DNA of 58,847 nucleotides, from positions 1 to 58,847 of IMG/VR virus record IMGVR_UViG_3300044796_000233. One strand, written 5' to 3'. This DNA comes from a virus (Duplodnaviria; Caudoviricetes). Shown here piece by piece: positions 4,162 through 58,847 of this stretch. The position numbers and the translations under genes are program-made. Under the pieces are notes generated by a model. It saw only the letters and a program-made list of their open reading frames with translations, was not told the DNA's origin and did no database searches. Position 1 is the first letter of the stretch, and every line of letters starts with the position of its first letter.

Positions 4162-5586
4162 TTAGTCGTCCCATTGCCGACTTAGCTCGGCCTCTTTCGA
4201 GAAGTGGGATTGTGCTGCCTCCCACATCTCCTGGGATTGCTGCTCAGCCCACTCCTTGGACCCATAGGCCGGAGCTTGTACCTTGGCTTGGTAAGCGAAT
4301 GCCGGGCTTTCCACGAAGGCATATAGCACCGCGTCGATGATATCGCTATGGGGTTGTTTCTTAACTACAATCTTATCCGGTGTAGATGCTTCCCAGTCTA
4401 TCTGCACAAGATACGAGTCCTGAGCAAATCGACTAGCACTCTTGGCTTTAAATCTACCGGTACGTAGGGCGTCATTGAGGAAGGCTACGTGTTCCTGTTT
4501 GCGGTGCTTGTCTGCCGCCTGCACCGGTATGCCGCGGCGTCTTCTAAGCTCTTCTGCCATCTTTTTACCGAGACCGCCTTCGTCGCATACTATCTTGTCA
4601 GGGTTATATCTTTTTATTACGTCTTCTATCTGTTCTGCCACTGCAGTAATGTCTTGTTTAGCGACTACCTTTTCTTCTACAAGATAAGTTTCTTTTGTCG
4701 TATCCGACCAAGCCAGAACAGCTATGGCATCAGCATCTTTAAAACCAAAGTCAACTCCTACTATGTAGTTCCACTTGTCCGGTGTAATCACCGGGAGTTG
4801 CGTGAAGTGATTTTTATTAGCCTCATATTGTATCCAAAGGCTTTTTTGATCTAACACCCACTCATTTCTGTATTCACGTCTAAGAGTAGGATTGTTCTCA
4901 TCCCACTCCCGCTTCTGCATAAGATCTGTGATGAATCCTTTCGGATCCGGCATGTAAGGATTGCTTAAAAGTGTCCACTTGTGGAGAGAGTATCCGTATT
5001 TTCCTTTTTGTGTCACGTCGAAGAAATAGCCATTTGGAACTGGTCCAGGAGTTCCGGTGAGAGCCAGCCAACCGTCTTCGTAGTCGGCTATTGCCGGCGT
5101 AAGTACGTCTTCCACAAGAGATTGCAAATGAACTGACATATCTTGCGCTTCATCGATTGCAACACCGGGGAATTTCCGTCCTCTCAATCTCTTAATGAAA
5201 TTCGACATATCTGCTCCGTAGAGCTTTAGCTGCGCACCGTTGGGGTGGGTCATAGTCAGGTTCGAAGGTACAAACGTGCATCCTAACTTATGCTTTTCGT
5301 TTAGCTCTTGTAAAACAGGCCATACAATGTCCCTTGCCGAATCTCGAGTAAGCGCTAGGTACACACACTGGGAGCGTGGGTACTTGGCCATAGTCTCAAA
5401 GAATCGCAGCGCTAATCCGTTAGTCTTACCGGAGCGACGAGAGCACTGGGCGGCGACGAATCTGCTGTTGTCATGAACAAATGCATTTTGTTCCGGGAAG
5501 TCAGCTCGTAATTCAAGAGGCTTTACTTCTAACGTCGCTCTTTTAATTATAGCTTTTTTGGCACCTCCCCTAGTCAGCATTGGCAA
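4162..5586 (-). CDS. terL: Terminase large subunit
   Basis: Walker A SRRSGKT, Walker B VAIDEAQ, coupling motif TGTP, nuclease GVDFG and HSDIIDA. Confidence 0.93.
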   Translation of the reverse strand: MPMLTRGGAKKAIIKRATLEVKPLELRADFPEQNAFVHDNSRFVAAQCSRRSGKTNGLALRFFETMAKYPRSQCVYLALTRDSARDIVWPVLQELNEKHKLGCTFVPSNLTMTHPNGAQLKLYGADMSNFIKRLRGRKFPGVAIDEAQDMSVHLQSLVEDVLTPAIADYEDGWLALTGTPGPVPNGYFFDVTQKGKYGYSLHKWTLLSNPYMPDPKGFITDLMQKREWDENNPTLRREYRNEWVLDQKSLWIQYEANKNHFTQLPVITPDKWNYIVGVDFGFKDADAIAVLAWSDTTKETYLVEEKVVAKQDITAVAEQIEDVIKRYNPDKIVCDEGGLGKKMAEELRRRRGIPVQAADKHRKQEHVAFLNDALRTGRFKAKSASRFAQDSYLVQIDWEASTPDKIVVKKQPHSDIIDAVLYAFVESPAFAYQAKVQAPAYGSKEWAEQQSQEMWEAAQSHFSKEAELSRQWDD

Positions 5587-21477: not shown

Positions 21478-22465
21478 GGATTTGTCTCCACATCGTCTTT
21501 AGTCGTTGTTTCTCATCTACGGTGTCGCTTAGTTCATCTATAAGCTTGTCTAAGGTTTCGGCGTTAGTCAAGTTTTTTGACACCGGGGTCGTCGTTTCGT
21601 TTTCAGTAGGTAGTAGATCTAGTTTGAAGTCCTCTTTACCGATAATCACTCCTAGCTGTTTTTTAGATATAGTGCTTAGCTCACTTTTACTGCCTGTAAT
21701 CTTAAGCCATAGTAAATCTTCTGGTTTTACGTAGTAAAGAGGATGCTCCATCGCACAAGCTTGGGCGTAGCCTTTGATTTCAGCGCAGGTCATTTCTATA
21801 ACATGGTGACGACGCAGGTTAGTTAGGACACGGTCGTAGCTGCCGTCGTCGTATACGACGAGGAAACCTTTCTCAGGGTCCTTAGCCTCTGCGAAATTAA
21901 TCGTATACGGTGACCCTATACTCACCGTGGTGCCTAGTTCGTAGAACGAGTGGTAGTGGGATAAGAAAACCTTGTAGTTGCTAGCGAGTTTGTAATCGAA
22001 GGCAGACTTGTCCTGTACATATTCGCCCATATTGCCCCCCAGAGTACCTTGATGCCCTATGACCACCGAGCCTTTAGGGAATTTATTTAACGCTGTCAAA
22101 AAGTTCTCAGTATTGTTTTGATAAGGAATGATGTTTAGTCCTTGAGTGGTAGTAGGACTACTAACAACTGTGGCGTAGGGTCTCAGAAAGTTTAGAGAGC
22201 TCTCCTTACTTTCAGAATTCAACAAATCGTGGTTGCCGGTGTTGATAATTACTTCTACTGGGGTACTCTCAAGCAGCTCTATGAGGCGATTGGCAATCTC
22301 AGCACGTATGACGGCCTTGGTGTCTAAAGTGTCCCCATTCATCAGAAAAGGAACTCCTAGACTCCTGGCCTTGGATAATCCCTGACTCACTGTATCTGAG
22401 GCTAGTTCAATACTATTCAAGGTAAAATGTATATCTCCAGCAACTATGCAGATAGGTTTAGGCAT
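21467..22465 (-). CDS. SbcD/Mre11/T4 gp47-like metallophosphoesterase nuclease
   Basis: GDIH, GDTLD, GNHD, SHYH, GSP motifs; adjacent to the SbcC-like gene. Confidence 0.9.
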   Translation of the reverse strand: MPKPICIVAGDIHFTLNSIELASDTVSQGLSKARSLGVPFLMNGDTLDTKAVIRAEIANRLIELLESTPVEVIINTGNHDLLNSESKESSLNFLRPYATVVSSPTTTQGLNIIPYQNNTENFLTALNKFPKGSVVIGHQGTLGGNMGEYVQDKSAFDYKLASNYKVFLSHYHSFYELGTTVSIGSPYTINFAEAKDPEKGFLVVYDDGSYDRVLTNLRRHHVIEMTCAEIKGYAQACAMEHPLYYVKPEDLLWLKITGSKSELSTISKKQLGVIIGKEDFKLDLLPTENETTTPVSKNLTNAETLDKLIDELSDTVDEKQRLKTMWRQILET

Positions 22466-22929
22466 GCAAATTCTCCAAAATAATACTTCGCTGCTATGTC
22501 ATATGCGCGTGCAGCATCTATTTCTTTTTCAAAGGAACCTAGATATATGCCCTTACCGTTAACGTGAATTCTTGACAGCCATTTTTTACCTCCTGTCGCT
22601 TTGTGCACACCTTTAAATTTGGAAGTAGCTCCTTTTATGCGATCTTTAGGTCTGTTGGCAGCGTTCCCTTTCTTGTTCGTAAGACGTAAGTTCTCTCGTC
22701 TGTTATCAAGAGAATTGCCGTTGATGTGATCCACTGATAAGTGTTTTGGAGGAGATAAAAGGAATCTATGCATAGTCACCTGAGTTCCTCCTACTGATGC
22801 TTTAGCGTATATTTTCTGGCATCTGTCTTTATCTTTGTACTGCTGAACGCACCAGCAGTGCTTGGACACCTTCTCATAATCAGAAGCGTCAATCAAAGCA
22901 AAATAACCTTGAGTAAGTTCTATTTTCAT
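22444..22929 (-). CDS. HNH-AP2 homing endonuclease
   Basis: MHR...VDHINGNSLDNRRENLR; TSKFKGV...YLGSF...AARAYD AP2 domain. Confidence 0.93.
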   Translation of the reverse strand: MKIELTQGYFALIDASDYEKVSKHCWCVQQYKDKDRCQKIYAKASVGGTQVTMHRFLLSPPKHLSVDHINGNSLDNRRENLRLTNKKGNAANRPKDRIKGATSKFKGVHKATGGKKWLSRIHVNGKGIYLGSFEKEIDAARAYDIAAKYYFGEFACLNLSA

Positions 22930-44479: not shown

Positions 44480-47400
44480 AGTTGAAGGACAGGTTGGTTA
44501 GGTCCATGAACTCACCGGAGGCACCGGTGACGACTTCTTGGATTAGTAGCGACATAGAATCGCATTTCTGAATCGTAAGGAATTGCCGGAACTGGAACGG
44601 GGTCTGGACGAATGTGAAAGGATTATGCGCGGTGTAGGTCTCGATGAAGTTCACCGCGGTGGAGATCTGCACACCGTGAGACCCGTTAACGGTACCGTCA
44701 CCGACGACTAGGAGATGCCGAAGCCGTTCGAACCCTTGTATGCCGGCGATAGCAAGCCAGCTAGTCTTCACCGTCAAGGCGAACGGTGTGGCGTTGTCGA
44801 GATACGTAGAAGAATTTTCTTGGTAGATAGCGCCATCAGTTCGGACATAGACGTAGGCACCATTCCAGTTGTCGGAGGAGTAACCCAGGTGGTTGGTGAA
44901 TACGGACCACTTGTTGAACATGTAGTCGTAGTGGAGGGATACACCGGAGGCGCAGAGGAACCGTACCTGTGTGGTGTTGGGGATGATCTTAGAATCTTGG
45001 ATCGGGGTCGTGCTGTAGGTTTCCACAGCGGCACCGTTAAAGACTTGGTCCGAGTAGTGAGGGTTGAGACCGCGATCGAGTAGGAATATGCCCTTTGTCG
45101 TCTGATAGATGATACCAGCCGGTACCAGGGTTAGGCTTCCTAGTACGGCCAGGCCTGATCCACTAGGGATGGTCTGCGGTTGTGTGAGAGTGGAATTGTT
45201 GCCGGTATCGTTAGCGCCGTCGCCTGCGAACCACAAGATTCCTTGGTCCTTGAAGACGATCATCTTGTCGTCCATGGCTTTAAGTCCAACGGTGTTTCCT
45301 TGTGTTGGTTGAATTTGAGTTATGTTAAAGTTAGCCGGTGATAAACCGTACCCCGGTGCGAACTGTTTGCTGTACCAGAGCGTGTTGGGTGCTTCAGCGT
45401 CGACACACCAGAGGCGATTGAAGCGAGGCTCTAACACCAGGGATGGGGGTGGCGTTGAGTTTTCCGATACACCACCGTTGGTGTAGAGTGGTGGAGCGTT
45501 GCGGAGCTGGGAATCGGTGGTGTTATCGATGAAGACTTGAGAGAAAACCGTGTTGGAGAAATTTCCGACTCCGCTATTGATCTGAAAGAATTCCGTACCG
45601 CTAGCGATAGTGCGGTACAGCTGGATTGTTACACCTGTCTTACCGGTTAGAAAAGGGTCAGTAACGGTGATGGAAACCTCTGAGTTGGCAGAGGCGACGG
45701 TGATGGAAACTTCTTGGGACGGAGCGGACTGGTGTAGGTTACCGTTAGCGTCTAACCATTGATACACCGCCACGTACGCGTAGGTACCTGCAGGAATCAC
45801 GCCGCCCATCGGGGTGCTTTGGGCGATCTTGTAGATTTCGGGGTACAGGTGATATCCCCACTCAGCACAGGTCTGCCCGTCGTACGCCGACAACAATGCC
45901 CCGTTAAGGATGTTCAACTCACCGGCCTGCGTGTTCTTGTACGTGCGTAGAGTGTTGAATCCAAAACTAAATGCAACCGATCCGTAGGAACTAACTGTGT
46001 TTTGTGTGAATGTAGAGTTGTTAGTGAAGGTTACCGAGGATGCGAATTGTTTTGTAGCGCAAAAAACGTAGTTTCCTGAACTAACAGTAGCCACATGCGG
46101 CGTGAACCAAGTAGTTATAGCAAGCGCTAAGCCACTAGCAAAGCGACCGGCAACGCAAGCATTAGCCGTGTCAATAATAAAATACGTAGGTTGTACGTTT
46201 GGGACGGTTGTGGAACTCACCGAGGAGTCGTACGTGGGTCCGTTGTAGTAGGCTATAAAATAATAGGCACCGTTGAATGAGAAGACACGTGACATAACTC
46301 CCACACCGAGGAGGTATAGTGCGATCCCTGTTATGCCCCCACTGATCGTGGGAATCGCGGTGTGGATAGAATTTATGCTATTACCGTTCGTGTCCTGTGT
46401 AACGACGGTGTAGAACACCGACTGGGTCGTGCTGTTAGTGGATTGCGCTACGATGTTCAGTATCGCGTTTTGTCCTTCGCTTGTGATGATCGTACTTGTC
46501 AGAATAGGAGTTAGATTTGAATCGTACACCTCGTAGTAGATGGAGTGCGTTGTGGAGATAGTGTCAGCATAGTAGACCCATATGTTACCGTTCGTGGGAT
46601 CCACGATATTGGCGACAGGGTTAGTCACCGTAGAGGACGTAGATAGGCTGATTGCGGCACTGTTTATGGTTGCCCCGGTGTCGTCTAGTGTTCTGGTCGT
46701 TACTGTGTCAGGGGAACTAAAAACATGGGACGTAAGCACGCAGCCGGTTGAGGTGGCAGACACATCGAATGACGGGTGGGACGGTAGTGAAGGTAAGTTT
46801 GCGTTGGGTTGAACAATAACCTGTGTGCCGATAGTCGCAGTAGTGCCGGATATGGTCACCACTTTCATGGCGATAGCGCTAGCTGTTCCGCCGTTTTGAG
46901 CTAGGTAAAATATACCGGCTTTTGTTGGACTTAAATTAATTACTCTGGGCGCGCTTGTGTCGGTGGTGCCGTTACCGCCATACGGTGCGACGAGAGTGTT
47001 GGGAAGAATCTCTACACCGGAGACGTTATCAACTATGGTGGTGTACACCGCTGGTGAGACGCCCGTAGCCCTAGCGTCCTCGTAAACATAGACGGTGTAG
47101 TTACCAACTACAGCACAGTCGGCGGCACCGGATACTGAGGTCTGGTAGAATATGCCTTTCTCGCTAAAGTCTATTGACGTGTAGTTTCCTTGTTTCTCCC
47201 ACGCTGGGAGAGATGGGCTGTAGGAATAGAACTGGCCTGAATCTTGACACGTAAGCTCGGTGCCGTAGGTGTCGATCATGCGCGGGGCGACGAGATTACC
47301 ACCGCCGGCAATAGCGCTTGTCAGGGCCGTGTAGCCATTCCTTTTCTGGATGTTGTCGATCTTGGTGTAGACGCCGTCTTGTACGAGGAGGAATTCACCG

Positions 47401-47507
47401 GGGACGACCTTTTTAGAGTCAGTCTTGGTGTTGATGCCGCCGCTGAAGTCAACTGGAAAGATTTGATCCTGAAGCGGCATTAGAACACCCACAGGGACAC
47501 AGTGCAC
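44427..47507 (-). CDS. Tail nozzle / DNA stabilisation protein (P22 gp10/T7 gp12-like; likely start 47480)
   Basis: FSGGINT...KRNG N-terminus, beta-propeller-like body, NRLW...LWYS. Confidence 0.75.
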   Translation of the reverse strand: MHCVPVGVLMPLQDQIFPVDFSGGINTKTDSKKVVPGEFLLVQDGVYTKIDNIQKRNGYTALTSAIAGGGNLVAPRMIDTYGTELTCQDSGQFYSYSPSLPAWEKQGNYTSIDFSEKGIFYQTSVSGAADCAVVGNYTVYVYEDARATGVSPAVYTTIVDNVSGVEILPNTLVAPYGGNGTTDTSAPRVINLSPTKAGIFYLAQNGGTASAIAMKVVTISGTTATIGTQVIVQPNANLPSLPSHPSFDVSATSTGCVLTSHVFSSPDTVTTRTLDDTGATINSAAISLSTSSTVTNPVANIVDPTNGNIWVYYADTISTTHSIYYEVYDSNLTPILTSTIITSEGQNAILNIVAQSTNSTTQSVFYTVVTQDTNGNSINSIHTAIPTISGGITGIALYLLGVGVMSRVFSFNGAYYFIAYYNGPTYDSSVSSTTVPNVQPTYFIIDTANACVAGRFASGLALAITTWFTPHVATVSSGNYVFCATKQFASSVTFTNNSTFTQNTVSSYGSVAFSFGFNTLRTYKNTQAGELNILNGALLSAYDGQTCAEWGYHLYPEIYKIAQSTPMGGVIPAGTYAYVAVYQWLDANGNLHQSAPSQEVSITVASANSEVSITVTDPFLTGKTGVTIQLYRTIASGTEFFQINSGVGNFSNTVFSQVFIDNTTDSQLRNAPPLYTNGGVSENSTPPPSLVLEPRFNRLWCVDAEAPNTLWYSKQFAPGYGLSPANFNITQIQPTQGNTVGLKAMDDKMIVFKDQGILWFAGDGANDTGNNSTLTQPQTIPSGSGLAVLGSLTLVPAGIIYQTTKGIFLLDRGLNPHYSDQVFNGAAVETYSTTPIQDSKIIPNTTQVRFLCASGVSLHYDYMFNKWSVFTNHLGYSSDNWNGAYVYVRTDGAIYQENSSTYLDNATPFALTVKTSWLAIAGIQGFERLRHLLVVGDGTVNGSHGVQISTAVNFIETYTAHNPFTFVQTPFQFRQFLTIQKCDSMSLLIQEVVTGASGEFMDLTNLSFNCGIKKGLHKVRSAVSVG

Positions 47508-47770
47508 GGTGTCGTCGCGTAGAGAGTTAATGTTTTCGTGTTAAAAGGCTTGGAGCGGGAGATGGTTACAGGGTTAGTGTCTAGGTCAATAATGATCCAA
47601 CCCTGCTGCAGCCGCCCCAACCCGGTGTTAATCACTGTCTCAGCTGACCCAGCTAGCTGCACGTTAAATATAAAATTCCCCTGCACGGGTGGGAGGGCTA
47701 GCACAGGGTTCAGCTGCGAGGACCACATGGTCTGCATCTGGGTTAGTGGTAGCTGTAGTGGGAGGCTCAT
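47480..47770 (-). CDS. Small tail-associated protein
   Basis: INTGLGRLQQGWIII pattern; structural operon. Confidence 0.65.
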   Translation of the reverse strand: MSLPLQLPLTQMQTMWSSQLNPVLALPPVQGNFIFNVQLAGSAETVINTGLGRLQQGWIIIDLDTNPVTISRSKPFNTKTLTLYATTPCTVSLWVF

Positions 47771-47799
47771 TTGACTTTATTCTCTACGTCTGTTATTCT
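47771..47799 (+). promoter_or_regulatory. Sigma70-like promoter TTGACT-N17-TATTCT, antisense to the structural operon
   Basis: TG extension; ATG 6 nt downstream at 47806. Confidence 0.55.
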
Positions 47800-49042
47800 G
47801 GTTGTATGAAAATCTAACCCTGGTGAAAGTAATCCCGCTGCTAAACTTACTTTTGAGCAGGTACAAGAAATAAGACGCCGCTACGCCGAAGAAGACATAT
47901 CGCAGCATAAGCTGGGAGCACAGTACGGTGTGAGCCAACGAATGGTATCCCTTATAGTAAGAGGAGAGAAATGGCGGCATAAGGACAAATCCTCCCTTGC
48001 CGATACCGGAGAAGGGTGACATGGATCCATTATTGCCGAATGGATTAACATCCACGATCGTTTGTGGCATACCTGCATCTCTGTTCATTGCTGATTCTTC
48101 GATGCGTTGTTTGAGAAACAGGAGTTCCTGAGTGATGACACTGGTGTCGGACTCTTCTTTATCCAACGCGTATTTTGCGGCTCTGCAAATAACATATTGC
48201 AACCAACCGCTGATGCCTGTCGTAGTCGTGTCTGTGTCGGCTAACAGTTCTTTTAATCTTGGAATGTACCACAGCCGAATCGGTTGGTTCGCTGACGGAG
48301 TTGGGATAAATTGAATGTTGTTCCCAAGAAGGCGGTACTCTAGATTAAATACACCGTAGATTGTGGAGGCGCTGTTGGGGTACAGGTAGCGGTTACGATC
48401 AGCAAAATTAAACTGCCTTACCGTCACAAAAGCCTGGTTAGCGGTATTGAGTCCTAGATCCACACCGATTAGCTTATAGAAGGGTGGTGCTACAAAAGTT
48501 CCCTGCCCCGTGATGCCATTGGTATAAGTCTGCACACCGTCTGGCAGTGGGTACAGGAACGTACTGCCGTTGGTGAGGAACTGTACAGGGATTGGCGCTA
48601 CATATTGATCTTCGTACAACGTTATGAGCATATCATACAGCTCAAACATGGCGTTGTTTATGAAATAATTCCATTCCGGTGTAGTCACAAACAAGCTATT
48701 AAGACGATCTGCACGCTGCTGGGCACGCGTTCTGAGCTCACCGAGGGATAGCTCCCCGGTCATGGTCGGAACGACGCTCTGAGAGGCTGTAAATGCGCTA
48801 GAACCGGATCCGTTAACGGCTTGGACTTGGTACCAGTAAGCGGTACCTGAGGTCACCGTGGTGTCAACGTAACTCGACGCAAGCGGGGATCCAGACAGCG
48901 TGGTGATCGTGGTGAAAGTAACGTTATCGAGTGACCGCTGTAGGACATAAGACGTTGCACCGGATGTCTGGTCCCACTGACTAAGGACCTGTCCATTTGC
49001 CTGAGTGACGTAAAAGTTGCTTGGAGTGCTAGGGGCTGCCAT
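47777..49042 (-). CDS. Head-tail adaptor with N-terminal FN3 domain and atypical ~70-aa C-terminal extension
   Basis: APSTPSNF...YWYQVQAVN FN3; LGELRTRAQQRAD...YFINNAMFELYD adaptor pattern. Confidence 0.75.
   Translation of the reverse strand: MAAPSTPSNFYVTQANGQVLSQWDQTSGATSYVLQRSLDNVTFTTITTLSGSPLASSYVDTTVTSGTAYWYQVQAVNGSGSSAFTASQSVVPTMTGELSLGELRTRAQQRADRLNSLFVTTPEWNYFINNAMFELYDMLITLYEDQYVAPIPVQFLTNGSTFLYPLPDGVQTYTNGITGQGTFVAPPFYKLIGVDLGLNTANQAFVTVRQFNFADRNRYLYPNSASTIYGVFNLEYRLLGNNIQFIPTPSANQPIRLWYIPRLKELLADTDTTTTGISGWLQYVICRAAKYALDKEESDTSVITQELLFLKQRIEESAMNRDAGMPQTIVDVNPFGNNGSMSPFSGIGKGGFVLMPPFLSSYYKGYHSLAHTVLCSQLMLRYVFFGVAASYFLYLLKSKFSSGITFTRVRFSYNQNNRRRE
47806..48019 (+). pseudogene. HNH-endonuclease-type C-terminal HTH domain gene, frameshifted by one extra A after the ATG
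   Basis: Frame 47810-48019 reads KSNPGESNPAAKLTFEQVQEIRRRYAEEDISQHKLGAQYGVSQRMVSLIVRGEKWRH. Confidence 0.7.
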
Positions 49043-52687: not shown

Positions 52688-53311
52688 TTACTTCTTAGGA
52701 ATAAGGGCTATAAAGGGGTTTGTCCCGTTAGTAAGATTCATGTGAAGAGAGCACAGCTGGTCACGTAAGTGTTTTTGATCATGACATAGCTGATAAACCA
52801 CCGGAATACCGGGTGTTAGGTTGCACATCCAGCAATCTTTCTCGTCCACTAAGCGTAGCTTGATTAAGTCAGTCATAGGTTCATCTCGATCATGTTTGGC
52901 TGCTTTCTTGTCTGTTCTAAACTTTATATAGGCACGAACGTCGTGACCCATACAACCCCAATTTATCAATGCCTTGGAGAAATCTTTTTCCTTTAAAGGC
53001 CGTCCTAGCTTAGTTTCAACGCACGATAAACAGAGATACTGGTGTTTTGTATCCTTAGTCACTTTTTTCCACAAAGAATTTAACAGCATGTAGGGTTCAT
53101 CTGGGTTGCCGCAAGAGTCACAGCCTGATCTGCTATAAGGTCGTTTAGTCTCAGACCAGTACAAATGTATTACTGCTAGTAGATTTTCCTCTTCAACACC
53201 GGCTTTGGTGGCTGTGCAGTAAATACACATATCAGAATCGTAATGCATACAGTACCTAGTCATAAAGTTAGTCCTTATCTTTAAGGTACCGGAAATGTTT
53301 ACCGCCTGCAA
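52688..53311 (-). CDS. Hypothetical Cys-rich protein (likely start 53263)
   Basis: CDSC...YMLLNSLW...LCLSCVETKLGRPL. Confidence 0.7.
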   Translation of the reverse strand: MQAVNISGTLKIRTNFMTRYCMHYDSDMCIYCTATKAGVEEENLLAVIHLYWSETKRPYSRSGCDSCGNPDEPYMLLNSLWKKVTKDTKHQYLCLSCVETKLGRPLKEKDFSKALINWGCMGHDVRAYIKFRTDKKAAKHDRDEPMTDLIKLRLVDEKDCWMCNLTPGIPVVYQLCHDQKHLRDQLCSLHMNLTNGTNPFIALIPKK

Positions 53312-54101
53312 CTTTTATTGTACCTTTTATCTGCAGATATATGCTCTGTCTATTTACACCCAGTGCCTTTGAAGCCTCTGTCAAACCTTCAAACACCTGC
53401 CCAGTCTCTATGCATTCAACTTTTTTGGTATTAGCTGGTTTCTTGCCTAACTTCGTGGCTCGCATCTTGGCTCGAACTTCGGTTGTGTATTGATCCTTGT
53501 GAGCTTCGGTCCAAGCCTCACCGGTGGGCAGTTCGCGTTTCCGGTAGGCTTTGTGTAGGTTATCTAAGGCTTCGCCGGTTCGTTTCTGACCTACGTTTGG
53601 GTTGACGTATCCAGGAACCTCGTAAGCTGCCTTACGGGCCTTCCCTACCTTGAGCTTTTGTGCTTCCGACATAGGAATGCCTTTGTTGGGAGGTGTCTTA
53701 CCTTTTAGCTTTGGATAATTTCTTGCTTGGTATTCCGGATCTTTGTGCAAAGCAACCATTGTGTCAGAGATTCGTTCTCTGACTTCCTCGGCCATTTCTC
53801 CATTCATGTGACCACCGACAGTCTGATTGTACCCATTCGGAACCATAGTCCCTAGAAGTTTGATGTAAAACCGCTCCCGTTCATTAAGATGGTCACAGTC
53901 TCTGCATTCTTCTAAAACTTCCCACACAAAATCTCCGGAACCGTACTCACTTATAGCTTTGTGAATAGGAGCTGGATAAATAACATCTGCAATATTAGCG
54001 GCGGCTCTTAGATGCTCTCCCCTCCTAGTATTTAAAGAGCGCGAAGTTTGGCCAATATAAGACTTACCAGTACTGACGTTAGTGGCTTTGTAAATAATCA
54101 T
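53268..54101 (-). CDS. GIY-YIG homing endonuclease with NUMOD repeats
   Basis: MIIYKATN...SYIGQT...R..EH, GYNQT; C-terminal KKVECIETGQVF..LTEAS HTH. Confidence 0.92.
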   Translation of the reverse strand: MIIYKATNVSTGKSYIGQTSRSLNTRRGEHLRAAANIADVIYPAPIHKAISEYGSGDFVWEVLEECRDCDHLNERERFYIKLLGTMVPNGYNQTVGGHMNGEMAEEVRERISDTMVALHKDPEYQARNYPKLKGKTPPNKGIPMSEAQKLKVGKARKAAYEVPGYVNPNVGQKRTGEALDNLHKAYRKRELPTGEAWTEAHKDQYTTEVRAKMRATKLGKKPANTKKVECIETGQVFEGLTEASKALGVNRQSIYLQIKGTIKVAGGKHFRYLKDKD

Positions 54102-54215: not shown

Positions 54216-55499
54216 TTAGGCAGAAAGCTGGACCACACAATTCCATCCCGGGGCCGAGCAGATAAGGTTGCCATAGTAACCTATACGAATCTCTAAAGCA
54301 TCCGCATTACCAACACGCAAGCCTTCTAACCCCTCCATGCCGTAGGTCAAAATATGTGGAACTTTTCCGAGTGAACGCAATTTCCAAGTTGACATGGTCA
54401 ACAAGTAGCACGTCTGCGGAGGGCAGCTGCGATCGGCCAGCACAGTAACGCGTCCGTAAGCGCTCTGGAAGGTGATACCTTCGAAAGCAACTTCAACCTC
54501 GTCGTGCTTAACTTGCACGTACTGAACCTTCGCTCCGAGCGCATTCACCAGGGCCGCGTAGCTAGCGAAGTCCATGATCGCGAGATCAGGCTTGCCACCT
54601 TCGCGGTTGAGGAACGCAAGCGCATTCGTCATACCTTCTTCGATGGTGTACGACTGCGCATTGTACCGGAGACCTGCCAAACGAGTCGGATCTACAGAGC
54701 GGTTAACGCCCCAGAAGTTATCCGAACCACCCGGTGTAGTCGTCGGGATCCACGCCGCAAGACCGGAGAGAGCTACGTAGCTCGCTACTGCACTCGCACC
54801 GGAGATCACGTCACCATACACGCCGAGCTGGTTACCAGCCGTCGTCCAAGACGAATCGGTGGAGGTAGCCGTACCGGTAACGATACCGTTAGCGCGGTCA
54901 ACTGCTGTCACCGCGAGCTGGGTCGAGGAGACAGAGCCAATCGTTCCAGCGGTGTTAACGAAATTGACAAGAGTCATGCCAACTTCGAAGTTAACGATCT
55001 GCTGAGCGTTACTGAGCGTGATCGCATAGATCGCGCCGGATGGGTTAGTCGCAGAGCCGATTTGACCACGGGAAGCCGTACCGTCACCGAACAACTCGAA
55101 AGCGATGTTGTTGGTGATGTTGCGGAACCCGCCGTCCATCTGGAGCTTAGCGGCGTCAACGAATGCACCGGCATTCGTCTTCGTCTGTTCCATCAGGAGG
55201 TTGGTGATCGTCACCAGCTGGTAGTCTTCGATCGTGTAGACGAAGAAGGATGCCAGCTGCGTAGGCGTCTGTTGGTTCTGGGCGTTCGAGAACGTATGCG
55301 AACGACCTTGCGGCGTTCCGTACTCGAGCGGGACCGGGATGTACTTACCGGCGAAACCGTCTGGGCTTTCGTTCTTAGGAACGAGGGCGAAGAACGGATT
55401 CTCCTTGTACACCAGGTCTTTCATGTACTCCTTATCGTCGGTGTACAATTCTTTCAAGGCTGCGGTCTGATTAGAGCTATTTGCGTAAGTGGCGGCCAT
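54216..55499 (-). CDS. Major capsid protein
   Basis: 427 aa, LKELY...FAGKYIPVPL...FGDGT pattern; follows scaffold, precedes strong terminator; biased codon use. Confidence 0.85.
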   Translation of the reverse strand: MAATYANSSNQTAALKELYTDDKEYMKDLVYKENPFFALVPKNESPDGFAGKYIPVPLEYGTPQGRSHTFSNAQNQQTPTQLASFFVYTIEDYQLVTITNLLMEQTKTNAGAFVDAAKLQMDGGFRNITNNIAFELFGDGTASRGQIGSATNPSGAIYAITLSNAQQIVNFEVGMTLVNFVNTAGTIGSVSSTQLAVTAVDRANGIVTGTATSTDSSWTTAGNQLGVYGDVISGASAVASYVALSGLAAWIPTTTPGGSDNFWGVNRSVDPTRLAGLRYNAQSYTIEEGMTNALAFLNREGGKPDLAIMDFASYAALVNALGAKVQYVQVKHDEVEVAFEGITFQSAYGRVTVLADRSCPPQTCYLLTMSTWKLRSLGKVPHILTYGMEGLEGLRVGNADALEIRIGYYGNLICSAPGWNCVVQLSA

Positions 55500-57096: not shown

Positions 57097-57142
57097 TAGT
57101 TTATGTAGATCTATTGAGTTTGCGATAGATCTACATAAACTA
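57097..57142. repeat. 18-bp perfect inverted repeat overlapping the portal stop codon
   Basis: TAGTTTATGTAGATCTAT-N10-ATAGATCTACATAAACTA. Confidence 0.85.
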
Positions 57143-58847
57143 TGCTGCGGCGGGGGCGTTCTGCAGGAGCGGGGACGAGGGAGGAGCCTCCGGTGTAGCT
57201 AAGGGTTGCGCACCGGGGGGTCCGGGCATGTTCGGTGCTGCCATGGCCGGTGCTGGAGGCGGTGTCGCCGCCTGTACGATTGCCTGTATCTGCGCAAAAA
57301 AGTCACGTAGCATCTGCATACGGTCTTCTGGAAGCTTGCACTGGCCATACTGGTTGATGTACTGCACGACGAACTTAGACGCTAGTTGCAGGTCCATGAA
57401 TGGATCCGGCGGCGTTGCAATACCGTCCTCGACGATCTGGTCCAGGATCTGAAAGATACGCTCTTCAGCGGCATTCTCCAGGGTGTCGATCTGCTCGATG
57501 TCCGGGAACCGCAGTAGGCGTCTAGCTTCACGCAGATCGATCATACCGGCTTGTGCCATCTCGGTGACTTTTTGCATACGCCCAGCTGGATCTCGTGGGA
57601 GTGACGATTCGTTAAAGCACTGGATGACAAAGGTGTCATCAAGCAGAGACGCCTCCGGTAGATCAATCTCCTTACGCCCGGTCTTGCGGTCGGGGTACAC
57701 CGTGGAGTAGGACCCGTCTCTGACTGCTATGTCTTTAGCAAGGTCAATGATCTGGTAGGCGAGATCCACAAATACGTTGTCGTAATTTCTTGCAAGGGCT
57801 GCGAATCGATCCGTTGCGATGTCGTCGTAGACTCGTTGTGCCTCACCAGAGTTGAGCCCAGCTGGTTTCTCGCCTGACGCTTGCATGTTAGATACACCGC
57901 ACTGTTGGTAGGCGTACTGTATGAGACGCTGAAGCTGTCCGTATAGCTCTTGAGGGACACAAGGTGCAACTTCATAGATTGGTTTCGTCCCTCTGTATTT
58001 TATGATTACGCCTACGTCATTGTTATTGTGGGCGGCGTCGACCTTGGATCCGGCTTCGAGGAACACGCGTGGTACACCAACCAGCTTGATAGCGCGGCTG
58101 ATGGTGTATAGGAGGCTGTTGATCTCCATCTGCGTTCCCATAAGCTGTTCTGCTAGGCCCTGAGCCCAGAAGCCTAAGAGGCGGGGGCTATAGTGGAGGA
58201 ACACAAACGGGAACTTATCCTTGGTGTACTCGTCGTCACAAAGTAAGCCTTCGCTACAGGCAATGACATGGCGTCCGTCTTTAGCGTTATTACCAGAAGG
58301 CAAGTGCCAGCCTTCGACTACCATGACGAGGTCTGACACCGTCTTGGACGAGTCGGCGCTGTTGTCGGGGTAGGCGGCGGAGGCGTTGGTGATCATCGCA
58401 TCCTTGCCTTCGAACATGTCTTTCAGCACCGAGCGGTCAATGAGCTTCATTTGGTACAGTTGCCGCGGCTCACCGTAGATGCCTTCGTTTGGGTCAGTGA
58501 GGAGCTCTGTAAGTAGTACGCGATCGACGCCGACTCGATTGTCCGGCGTCTCGTAAATCTTTAAGCAACCGGTGCCGGTAACAAGCGCGTCACGAAGGAT
58601 GGTGGCAGCTTTGTCGTAGGACTTAGTTTGATAGAACTCGCCTTGAATAAAGTTATTTAGTTGCTTAGCTAAGCGGCGTTCTTTATAGTCGCTGTTGTCG
58701 GTGAGGAACACCGGGGCTGGGCGGCTTTGGCTGATACGGCTCACCAGGGTATCGGCTGCACTTTGTACTACGTTGAACGTCGGGCGATCGGCAGGAAGAC
58801 CGGTGCTTTGGTCTAGCTTCGTCATGTTGCTGCCGATGAAGTTGTAC
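57140..58847 (-). CDS. Portal protein (N-terminus at 872..1086 on circularisation)
   Basis: NVVQSAADTLVSRI, DALVTGTG, GVSNMQASGEKPAGLNSGEA, Pro/Ala-rich tail; between terminase and scaffold. Confidence 0.88.
   Translation of the reverse strand, partial: YNFIGSNMTKLDQSTGLPADRPTFNVVQSAADTLVSRISQSRPAPVFLTDNSDYKERRLAKQLNNFIQGEFYQTKSYDKAATILRDALVTGTGCLKIYETPDNRVGVDRVLLTELLTDPNEGIYGEPRQLYQMKLIDRSVLKDMFEGKDAMITNASAAYPDNSADSSKTVSDLVMVVEGWHLPSGNNAKDGRHVIACSEGLLCDDEYTKDKFPFVFLHYSPRLLGFWAQGLAEQLMGTQMEINSLLYTISRAIKLVGVPRVFLEAGSKVDAAHNNNDVGVIIKYRGTKPIYEVAPCVPQELYGQLQRLIQYAYQQCGVSNMQASGEKPAGLNSGEAQRVYDDIATDRFAALARNYDNVFVDLAYQIIDLAKDIAVRDGSYSTVYPDRKTGRKEIDLPEASLLDDTFVIQCFNESSLPRDPAGRMQKVTEMAQAGMIDLREARRLLRFPDIEQIDTLENAAEERIFQILDQIVEDGIATPPDPFMDLQLASKFVVQYINQYGQCKLPEDRMQMLRDFFAQIQAIVQAATPPPAPAMAAPNMPGPPGAQPLATPEAPPSSPLLQNAPAAA
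57977..58847. repeat. Right copy of terminal direct repeat; allele B
   Basis: ~95% identical to 1-871. Confidence 0.95.

Follow-up and report, generated by a model that had tools for sequence, protein, structure and literature searches.

A reading frame antisense to the tail of a phage head-tail adaptor gene is a probable relic of an HNH homing endonuclease

The stretch of DNA described here, called the window below, is the whole of the IMG/VR virus record IMGVR_UViG_3300044796_000233 (Duplodnaviria; Caudoviricetes), a complete, metagenome-assembled virus record of 58,847 nucleotides (about 58.8 kb). At its locus of interest, the 3' end of a predicted head-tail adaptor gene on the minus strand is paired with a helix-turn-helix (HTH) reading frame on the plus strand. 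An earlier note on this DNA, made from the sequence alone, took the HTH frame for a nuclease-less gene derived from a homing endonuclease and disabled by one extra A. Our analysis indicates that the frame is probably the decayed remnant of an antisense HNH homing endonuclease and not a gene one base from repair. The features at the locus are the following.

47777..49042, minus strand: head-tail adaptor open reading frame (ORF) of 421 amino acids (aa), stop TAA at 47777-47779
48758-49042, minus strand: adaptor residues 1-95, an FN3 domain assigned from FN3 profile matches
48071-48754, minus strand: adaptor residues 97-324, a core like that of T7 gp11 and SU10 gp11, assigned with AlphaFold2 (AF2), Foldseek and VIA-align
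47987-48070, minus strand: adaptor residues 325-352, a glycine-rich arm ending in GIGKGGF (residues 346-352)
47780-47986, minus strand: adaptor residues 353-421, a 69-aa extension, the in-register antisense of the putative endonuclease remnant and its 5' region
47771..47799, plus strand: promoter-like element, TTGACT (47771-76), 17 nucleotides (nt) and TATTCT (47794-99), with TG before the second hexamer; 6 nt follow, then ATG
47806..47817, plus strand: putative retained endonuclease start, ATG (47806-08) AAA ATC and then TAA, with a run of four A (A4) at 47809-47812
47813..47977, plus strand: HTH module of 55 codons (SNPGE...KWR), identified by tblastn, alignments, PHROG, phmmer and AF2
47978..48019, plus strand: run-on of the HTH frame, 13 non-homologous codons (HKDKSSLADTGEG) and stop TGA, antisense to the adaptor's native Gly-rich end
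47480..47770, minus strand: next gene of the late operon, 96 aa, function unassigned, whose ATG abuts or overlaps the adaptor stop in relatives

Head-tail adaptor is a fair name for the 421-aa protein, because its predicted fold matches chains of portal-tail complexes and agrees with what is described for SU10 gp11; the name given in the earlier note can stand on that ground. With the AF2 model as query, Foldseek returned the SU10 tail (7z47_B), the Pa223 tail (9nwi_A, TMt 0.72), KHP30 (7wmp_m) and cyanophage A4 (9k09_d), at E values of 1.8e-6 to 1.4e-5, and VIA-align superimposed GP4 chain 8jov_2 on adaptor residues 97-324 (Z 13.0, 198 residues aligned). The matched chains of these podovirus portal-tail complexes are about 200-230 residues long. 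The SU10 adaptor gp11 is described as a helix bundle with a fibre-dock domain and an embracing loop (PMC9509320), and from this description and the chain sizes we infer that the matched chains are adaptor subunits. Model confidence is high in the core (pLDDT >90), below 50 over residues 322-378, and middling in a helix at residues 371-397. The Gly-rich, low-confidence residues 322-352 are compatible with an arm that becomes ordered only on the portal. The 69 residues after GIGKGGF are hydrophobic and basic and include a transmembrane (TM)-like segment, with a Kyte-Doolittle 19-residue maximum of 1.67, in agreement with the odd hydrophobic tail of about 70 residues that had been pointed out. 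The ORF ends 6 nt before the ATG of the next gene.

The plus-strand frame at 47810-48019 reads KSNPGESNPAAKLTFEQVQEIRRRYAEEDISQHKLGAQYGVSQRMVSLIVRGEKWRH...*. Its codons and the triplets of the minus-strand ORF both start at coordinates equal to 2 mod 3, so that it is antisense to the adaptor tail exactly in register, as had been stated. Judged by sequence comparison, its homology to HTH modules of phage endonucleases is far above chance. The best PHROG match was the endonuclease family phrog_6156 (E 1.4e-7); several HNH-endonuclease PHROGs matched too, as did PHROG 1468, annotated as a transcriptional repressor (a 67-position profile, E 4.3e-5). A phmmer search of 1.84 billion representatives gave 8958 matches at E<=1e-3, 745 of them at E<=1e-10, and the module is repeated 2-12 times in many of the 150 matches listed. 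Five matches were scanned with Pfam (P0035, P0047, P0065, P0135 and P0002): two have HNH_3, one has GIY-YIG and two have no nuclease domain. Pfam-A itself returned only sub-threshold HTH matches to the frame (Sigma70_r4, 21.6 bits against a cut-off of 24.1). The AF2 model has three helices (15-27, 32-39 and 43-51) with a core pLDDT of about 90, and nearly all of its top Foldseek rows are DNA-binding proteins of the HTH or homeodomain type, but only at E values of at least 0.16. The closest counterparts among relatives of the window are the C-terminal modules of two HNH_3 endonucleases at loci L001 (62% identity) and L068 (48%, both by tblastn), and the assignment of the frame to the HTH of an HNH homing endonuclease thus holds. 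No ATG, GTG or TTG precedes a GTG at 47930 in this frame, and the HTH is therefore not translatable by ordinary initiation.

Outside the phage group, the closest relative of the HTH is a stand-alone 62-aa ORF (MKRLARTWKHLTPEKVAEIRRRYAEEDISQ...) at L087, positions 362-553 of the plus strand (62% over 45 aa). It is not preceded by an in-frame nuclease domain.

The relatives of the adaptor show what its 3' end ordinarily looks like. A scan of IMG/VR found adaptor homologues at 138 loci; 80 were retained, and the end of the ORF could be determined in 79. In 77 of these 79 the adaptor ends no more than 26 codons past the core match; L001 and L068 are the exceptions. Of 54 distinct complete adaptors, 52 have their stop within the Gly-rich segment, and in 50 of these the last residue is F, W or Y. 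Homologues thus end at a GG[FWY] version of the window's GGF, which is the end that the earlier note had proposed to check. The conserved terminal aromatic suggests, from the sequences, a docking role for the free adaptor C-terminus, which would be masked in extended forms.

Both the adaptor and the next gene were found in 69 loci. The estimated gap between them is -3 to 17 nt in 47 of these (48 with L001, if its gap is taken after the read-through described below), and 22 of the 69 carry an insert at the junction, of the following kinds.

Sense HNH endonucleases: L008/L009 and L028
Antisense HNH endonucleases: L001, L068, L024 and L034
GIY-YIG endonuclease: L039
P-loop protein: L080
Small membrane protein of 61-72 aa: 11 loci
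Tandem Ig-like repeat proteins of 105-119 aa: L019 and L065

The junction is a hot spot for mobile genes. We regard its inserts as mobile because their presence differs between near-identical adaptors, with filled and empty junctions in the pairs L034/L027 and L028/L036. L001 (154 aa from its ATG) and L068 (161 aa) contain complete antisense HNH_3+HTH endonucleases at the same junction as the window remnant; the PF13392 HNH_3 domain scores 33.8 bits in L001 and 53.3 bits in L068 (cut-off 24.8). At either locus the native adaptor stop is absent, and the ORF continues into the strand opposite the endonuclease gene. The read-through is 171 codons long in L001, reaching a TAA that overlaps the ATG of the next gene, and 86 codons in L068, reaching a TAG that is followed immediately by the ATG of a further ORF toward the next gene; this second ORF ends at 1613, near the estimated start of that gene. 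The adaptor core of the window is 64-71% identical to that of L001, and a quick tree made the two nearest neighbours at a weak node, which fits one shared insertion or two separate ones.

These comparisons point to the following origin for the HTH frame. A free-standing HNH_3+HTH endonuclease gene would have been inserted antisense between the adaptor and the next late gene of a podovirus-like phage, equipped with a promoter of its own and a leaderless ATG. Later, some 96 internal codons, with the nuclease domain, would have been lost in one deletion, which fused codon 3 out of frame to the first codon of the HTH, a Ser codon, at a junction of about 47812-47815. On the plus strand this would leave M-K-I-stop, the HTH no longer being made by ordinary initiation, and the relic would represent a stage in a cycle of homing-endonuclease gain, decay and loss. 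On the minus strand, the adaptor, lacking a stop at its native GG[FWY] end, would be translated through the antisense side of the relic.

The alignment shows the missing domain directly, as the window remnant has none of the columns of L001 enzyme residues 2-99. A PF13392 search of the window's own genome found no HNH_3 at 47.7-48.1 kb, the only matches being at 22660-22749 (34.9 bits) and a weak one at 1215-1244. In the L001 and L068 endonucleases the stop follows a conserved W by 0-3 codons; the window frame has lost that stop and runs on for 13 codons. The ATG at 47806 lies out of the HTH frame and is stopped after three codons (M-K-I-stop). The sequence here, ATGAAAATC, matches the first three codons of the L068 endonuclease, ATGAATATC, at 8 of 9 bases, and the probability that at least 5 of the 6 bases after the ATG match L068 by chance (AAA ATC against AAT ATC) is P = 0.005. 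Homology to the HTH resumes at TCT AAC CCT GGT GAA, which corresponds to KKV-SNPGE in L001 and AKV-ANFGE in L068. An out-of-frame TAA after the HTH was considered as a second lesion and dropped as too weak.

One out-of-frame deletion would account for the A run, and no separate later insertion would be needed. The idea that the run has one A too many is not supported, in view of the match of ATGAAAATC to the L068 start. The arithmetic behind that idea is sound: if AAAA is read as one step, an intact HTH gene of 70 aa, MKSNPGE..., results, and by a reading of the sequence the minus strand with one T less would end at AAA-TGA, overlapping the ATG at 47770-47768. It does not follow that one base would repair both genes, since the minus-strand ORF is unbroken as it stands, ends 6 nt before the next ATG, and has relatives that read through in the same way. 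Of the wider proposal, a nuclease-less HTH gene overlapping a virion gene, the endonuclease origin and the overlap stand; the intact gene is replaced by a probable decayed relic.

The A4 run is real at the level of contigs, a minor A3 allele being compatible with them. Across 47595-48500, a Logan contig of DNA run X1 (depth about 14) is identical to the window, with no gap; since this run is possibly the source sample itself, X2 is the only independent one. X2 is an RNA library of a different study, and its contig aligns to 47643-47929, over the A4, with 6 substitutions and no gap. There is thus no indel at 47809-47812 in either, and a sequencing error, one of the causes offered earlier for the extra A, is contradicted. 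The RNA-library contig covers the relic; contigs carry neither strand, transcription start nor expression level.

The sequence upstream of the ATG also resembles that of intact relatives. The corresponding layouts are TTGACC-N17-TATATA-N6-ATG in L001, TTGACA-N16-TATACC-N6-ATG in L068 and TTGACA-N16-TATAAT-N7-ATG in L034, where the scan score is 12 of 12. The window arrangement is thus shared with three of the four intact antisense endonuclease genes: TTGAC, 16-17 nt, a -10-like hexamer, 6-7 nt and ATG. L024 differs, having TTGACT-N18-TAGATT and a leader with AGGAGG. The window site scores 9 of 12 and is not significant alone, because the scan gave 3 sites per 2.4 kb against 2.1 expected. The promoter claimed earlier therefore stands as a TTGACT-N17-TATTCT-N6-ATG element with counterparts in relatives, and falls short where its score is taken by itself; that it drives transcription is plausible. 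The -35 hexamer is complementary to GTCAA, a native motif that stands shortly before the ATG of the next gene. The empty site L027 has the native GTCAA, and the L034 insert lies between the adaptor stop and the native GGTGTCAA-ATG motif. Only 36 nt separate the next gene's ATG from the ATG at 47806.

In L024 (5470-5500), the Shine-Dalgarno sequence AGGAGG of the antisense endonuclease is the complement of CCTCCT, which lies just upstream of the ATG of the next gene. These divergent starts have 20 nt in common, and the endonuclease -35 lies inside the coding sequence of its neighbour.

Several observations weigh against a history of decay. The N-terminal match is supported by one relative only, as L001 starts ATG ACC ACT, and the promoter scan called the window and L034 sites and not the L001 or L068 hexamers, because the -10 of these lacks the final T. 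The HTH frame is still open over 69 codons with all family-typical residues kept, and the promoter-like element, with its TG, is undecayed. The HTH is as similar to that of L001 as the adaptor core is, which fits either a recent deletion or a gene under selection. Window-specific substitutions in the HTH are 6, 4 and 6 over codon positions 1-3 (n=16), a flat spread such as relaxed constraint would give but not significant, and those on the L001 branch are 6, 4 and 13. Intact nuclease-less proteins of this module exist (the 62-aa ORF of L087; P0065 and P0135), and a domesticated HTH is not absurd. An in-frame loss of the HNH domain could indeed have turned the endonuclease into a leaderless HTH gene of about 70 aa, which was domesticated, for example as a regulator, and later acquired one A or an A-run switch. 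The open frame with its kept residues, the intact promoter-like element and ATG, the stand-alone proteins just mentioned and the uninterrupted 70-aa protein obtained by reading AAAA as one step all favour such a gene. We nevertheless consider it unlikely. It requires two events, an in-frame deletion and an insertion, in place of one out-of-frame deletion; ATG AAA ATC fits the L068 endonuclease N-terminus, leaving no extra A to explain; and the A4 is without an indel in both runs, including the variant strain of another study. Viral and metagenome contig scans with the HTH peptide found distant relatives only, no closer in-frame one and none with the same nuclease-less junction, and an exact 26-nt junction pattern had 0 matches in metagenome contigs. 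A word-index protein search returned no relative of 37-121 aa, which is no proof of absence, since L087 has one. A run of four A is in any case short for slippage-based phase variation.

Expression of the HTH at present, as a low-level 70-aa DNA-binding protein, could also be brought about by slippage, either in transcription or by +1 of the Lys-tRNA on A-AAA, at the second codon of a leaderless mRNA. The geometry allows it (AAA to the AAA one base on, then TCT), and an in-frame stop follows two codons later, but we regard it as highly improbable. A stimulatory element was looked for and not found, the Rfam search of 47300-48500 giving only a meaningless long non-coding RNA (lncRNA) match at E 0.77; AAA is followed by ATC, a common codon and no stop; no second sequence has the same junction; and A4 is shorter than the runs that give efficient slippage. 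Finally, faulty assembly or sequencing could have produced the A4 run and thereby the long adaptor tail, the record being metagenome-assembled and homopolymer errors occurring on some platforms. This is largely refuted and retains hardly any probability, given that X1 contigs reproduce 47595-48500 exactly, that the X2 contig passes 47643-47929 with substitutions and no gap, that the tail is open for 60 codons before the A run is reached, and that L001 and L068 have the same read-through. A decayed remnant of the antisense endonuclease gene is the reading we retain for the HTH frame; judged from its sequence, the window element cannot be an endonuclease, and as it stands it is not a gene.

The antisense endonuclease genes at this junction seem to bear the mark of the strand opposite to their own. 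TTA, CTA and TCA, whose complements are stop codons, occur in the four intact genes at 0/154, 1/161, 0/131 and 1/154 codons (2/600 in total), against 9/143, 15/147, 10/217 and 4/142 in same-sense inserts (38/649 in total; Fisher p = 3e-9, antisense versus same-sense). Usage at their own loci would predict 22.7. An internal control was made on an antisense set consisting of the four intact genes and the window remnant. In this set, CTA and TCA make up 2 of 52 CTN/TCN codons, compared with 45 of 187 A-ending codons (24%) in control four-fold families (p = 6e-4), and TTA makes up 0 of 9 TTR codons, compared with 93 of 139 (67%) in control two-fold families (p = 9e-5). The same-sense inserts have no such gap. 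The avoidance is therefore aimed at TTA, CTA and TCA and not at A-ending codons generally, since the control families keep their A-endings. The four intact genes are mutually only 36-47% identical.

Because the antisense endonuclease genes avoid these codons, the operon-strand frame across them is open: the in-register frame has 0-1 stops across each insert, and the other two frames have 6-25. The form of the covering frame varies. It is an extension of the adaptor in the window, in L001 and in part of L068. L024 has an independent ORF there, opening 5 nt past the adaptor stop, and L034 and the second part of L068 have a series of ORFs tiled stop to ATG. In L001, L024, L034 and the window, the covering ORF reaches the next gene's ATG or stops a few nt from it. 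Where stops do occur over an insert they are directly followed by ATG (TAG-ATG in L068; TGA-ATG in L034, where a further ORF opens with M after the stop at 5255-5257). This pattern would be explained by selection for unbroken translation of the operon strand across the insert, either for coupling to the next gene or for escape from Rho-type polarity. The latter would concern about 0.5 kb of otherwise untranslated RNA; in empty sites the next gene abuts the adaptor stop. The extended adaptor would presumably be made as a protein.

The lone antisense stop in L068 (1329-1334) and in L034 (5255-5260) is the complement of the CTA of a conserved H-L-F motif. L068 reads CAT CTA at this point, which on the operon strand gives TAG and then ATG.

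The open minus-strand frame over the relic could also be caused by codon usage and chance, with the extension as tolerated junk under no selection. An in-register antisense frame is generally the least stop-rich, and within the genes of this genome it is open in 1271 of 10598 windows of 70 codons (12%), so that the open minus frame of the window is unremarkable by itself. A broader survey of 80 other HNH_3 loci, sorted into antisense and sense by a crude flank rule, gave a heterogeneous antisense sample: 21 of 1351 codons in 8 antisense loci were TTA, CTA or TCA against 34.9 expected, a weaker and uneven deficit with two loci contributing 7 each, and the 47 sense loci had 312 of 8231 against 253.6 expected. 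This result counts against selection, as does the near-universal terminal aromatic (50 of 52 short adaptors): the free C-terminus seems to matter, and the 69-aa extension may therefore be costly, processed or removed. Chance is nonetheless doubtful as the whole explanation. The avoidance at the junction is specific to the three codons and holds in four diverged genes; same-sense inserts, including L028 of the same family (9/143), do not show it; and the stops that occur are directly followed by ATG, with covering ORFs that end near the next start in L001, L024, L034 and the window.

It is quite possible, though we hold it only tentatively, that backward endonuclease genes in the late operon of this lineage persist only if they are free of TTA, CTA and TCA, which would let ribosomes cross them, in an adaptor extension or in tiled stop-ATG ORFs, and bring translation to the next tail gene, and that the relic has been kept after the death of the endonuclease as a translated bridge, an exapted coding spacer that would place a TM-like tail on all twelve adaptor subunits.

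The surrounding genes place the locus in a late operon on the minus strand, in the order portal, major head, ... 236-aa ORF, 421-aa ORF, 96-aa ORF and 1026-aa ORF. The head genes upstream of the adaptor are as follows.

57140-58825, minus strand: portal gene, late operon, upstream of the adaptor
54216-55499, minus strand: major head gene, late operon, upstream of the adaptor

The adaptor gene thus lies between head genes and a large downstream ORF, as is the case for adaptors like T7 gp11. The 1026-aa ORF had no family match in Pfam-A or PHROG searches and is nozzle-like by position only. In INPHARED phage records, neither the region nor the adaptor was matched by DNA or by protein. With its listed GTG start at 47507, the 1026-aa ORF shares its first 28 nt with the end of the 96-aa gene (47480-47507), and the boundary between the two is a strain-variable patch (47481-47595): in a second contig of DNA run X1, about 113 nt that span the 96-aa gene's 3' end and the first part of the 1026-aa ORF are swapped for 114 other letters, and the RNA-library contig likewise diverges at 47481.

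Two other genes of endonuclease type occur in the genome. An intact 277-aa GIY-YIG-type homing endonuclease (phrog_314, E 1.4e-29) is encoded at 53268-54101 on the minus strand, in sense orientation directly downstream of the major head gene, and is a second selfish gene of the same late operon. The third endonuclease-type gene, a 161-aa ORF at 22444-22929 on the minus strand, has an HNH_3 domain (34.9 bits, above the cut-off) and no copy of the HTH module.

If these interpretations are correct, an essential virion protein has, in three genomes, a tail of 69-171 residues that mirrors a selfish gene, in a family that otherwise ends on a free aromatic. The codon counts are evidence that antisense endonuclease genes are constrained by a strand they do not use, and they give a handle on the dependence of operons on unbroken translation, whether through coupling or through Rho polarity; they also bear on how selfish elements limit harm to the genome of their host. 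For annotation, long odd tails on structural genes may be the shadows of antisense mobile genes. Should the constraint be general, antisense selfish genes in bacterial and phage operons would as a rule leave the opposite strand free of stops, and a stop-free opposite strand would be a signature of sites that need uninterrupted translation.

That phage operons contain free-standing endonuclease genes, that these have promoters of their own and that they decay is textbook matter, and the names of Goddard and Burt are reportedly attached to the homing-endonuclease cycle. With the PF13392 HNH_3+HTH enzymes (PHROG 6156, 59 and 20467) the window shares the C-terminal HTH of 55 residues, the promoter-like 5' end and a polymorphic site; unlike them, the remnant has no nuclease domain, a frame broken after codon 3 and no intact ORF with a start. 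For the endonucleases of yeast introns a cycle of gain, degeneration and loss has been described, and it is also considered for T4-type phages (PMC2988022). The locus resembles that cycle in its patchy distribution: some genomes have an intact copy, the window a truncated, inactive one, and most an empty site. It differs from simple loss in that the antisense strand of the relic now supplies the 3' end of the adaptor ORF and spans the interval to the next gene; the relic could not be lost without effect.

According to the same account of T4 (PMC2988022), all 15 endonuclease genes except segD share the orientation of their neighbours, and an inserted promoter of opposite orientation would create antisense transcripts. 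The segD gene lies between structural genes 23 and 24 and against its neighbours (PMC2988022), and to that extent is like the window locus, a free-standing antisense endonuclease gene in a late structural operon. In the passages of PMC2988022 that describe it, segD is placed between two genes, with no mention there of a host ORF reading through it or of avoidance of stops on the opposite strand. Unlike segD as so described, the inserts here are covered by host or tiled ORFs and have a consensus-like promoter of their own.

Among adaptors, the core at residues 97-324 fits chains of the SU10, Pa223, KHP30, A4 and GP4 complexes, and the Gly-rich C-terminal arm, modelled with low confidence, would fit an embracing loop of the SU10 type (PMC9509320). 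The window adaptor differs from T7 gp11 and SU10 gp11 in its N-terminal FN3 and in the extension of 69-171 aa encoded antisense to an endonuclease in three genomes. Stand-alone HTH proteins (the 62-aa ORF of L087 and PHROG 1468) have the same predicted fold and the motif ...AKLT..QV.EIR.RY....Q..L...YGVSQ..VS.IVRG..W; they have a start codon of their own, and the window frame has none, being an ORF only if AAAA is one step. A keyword search of the open-access literature, over titles and the openings of abstracts, found no host ORF through an antisense endonuclease gene and no opposite-strand stop avoidance, which is no proof of absence. The relic itself is ordinary, decayed homing endonucleases being expected; read-through combined with codon-level avoidance of stops is, as far as we have found, an apparently new variant of the known systems.

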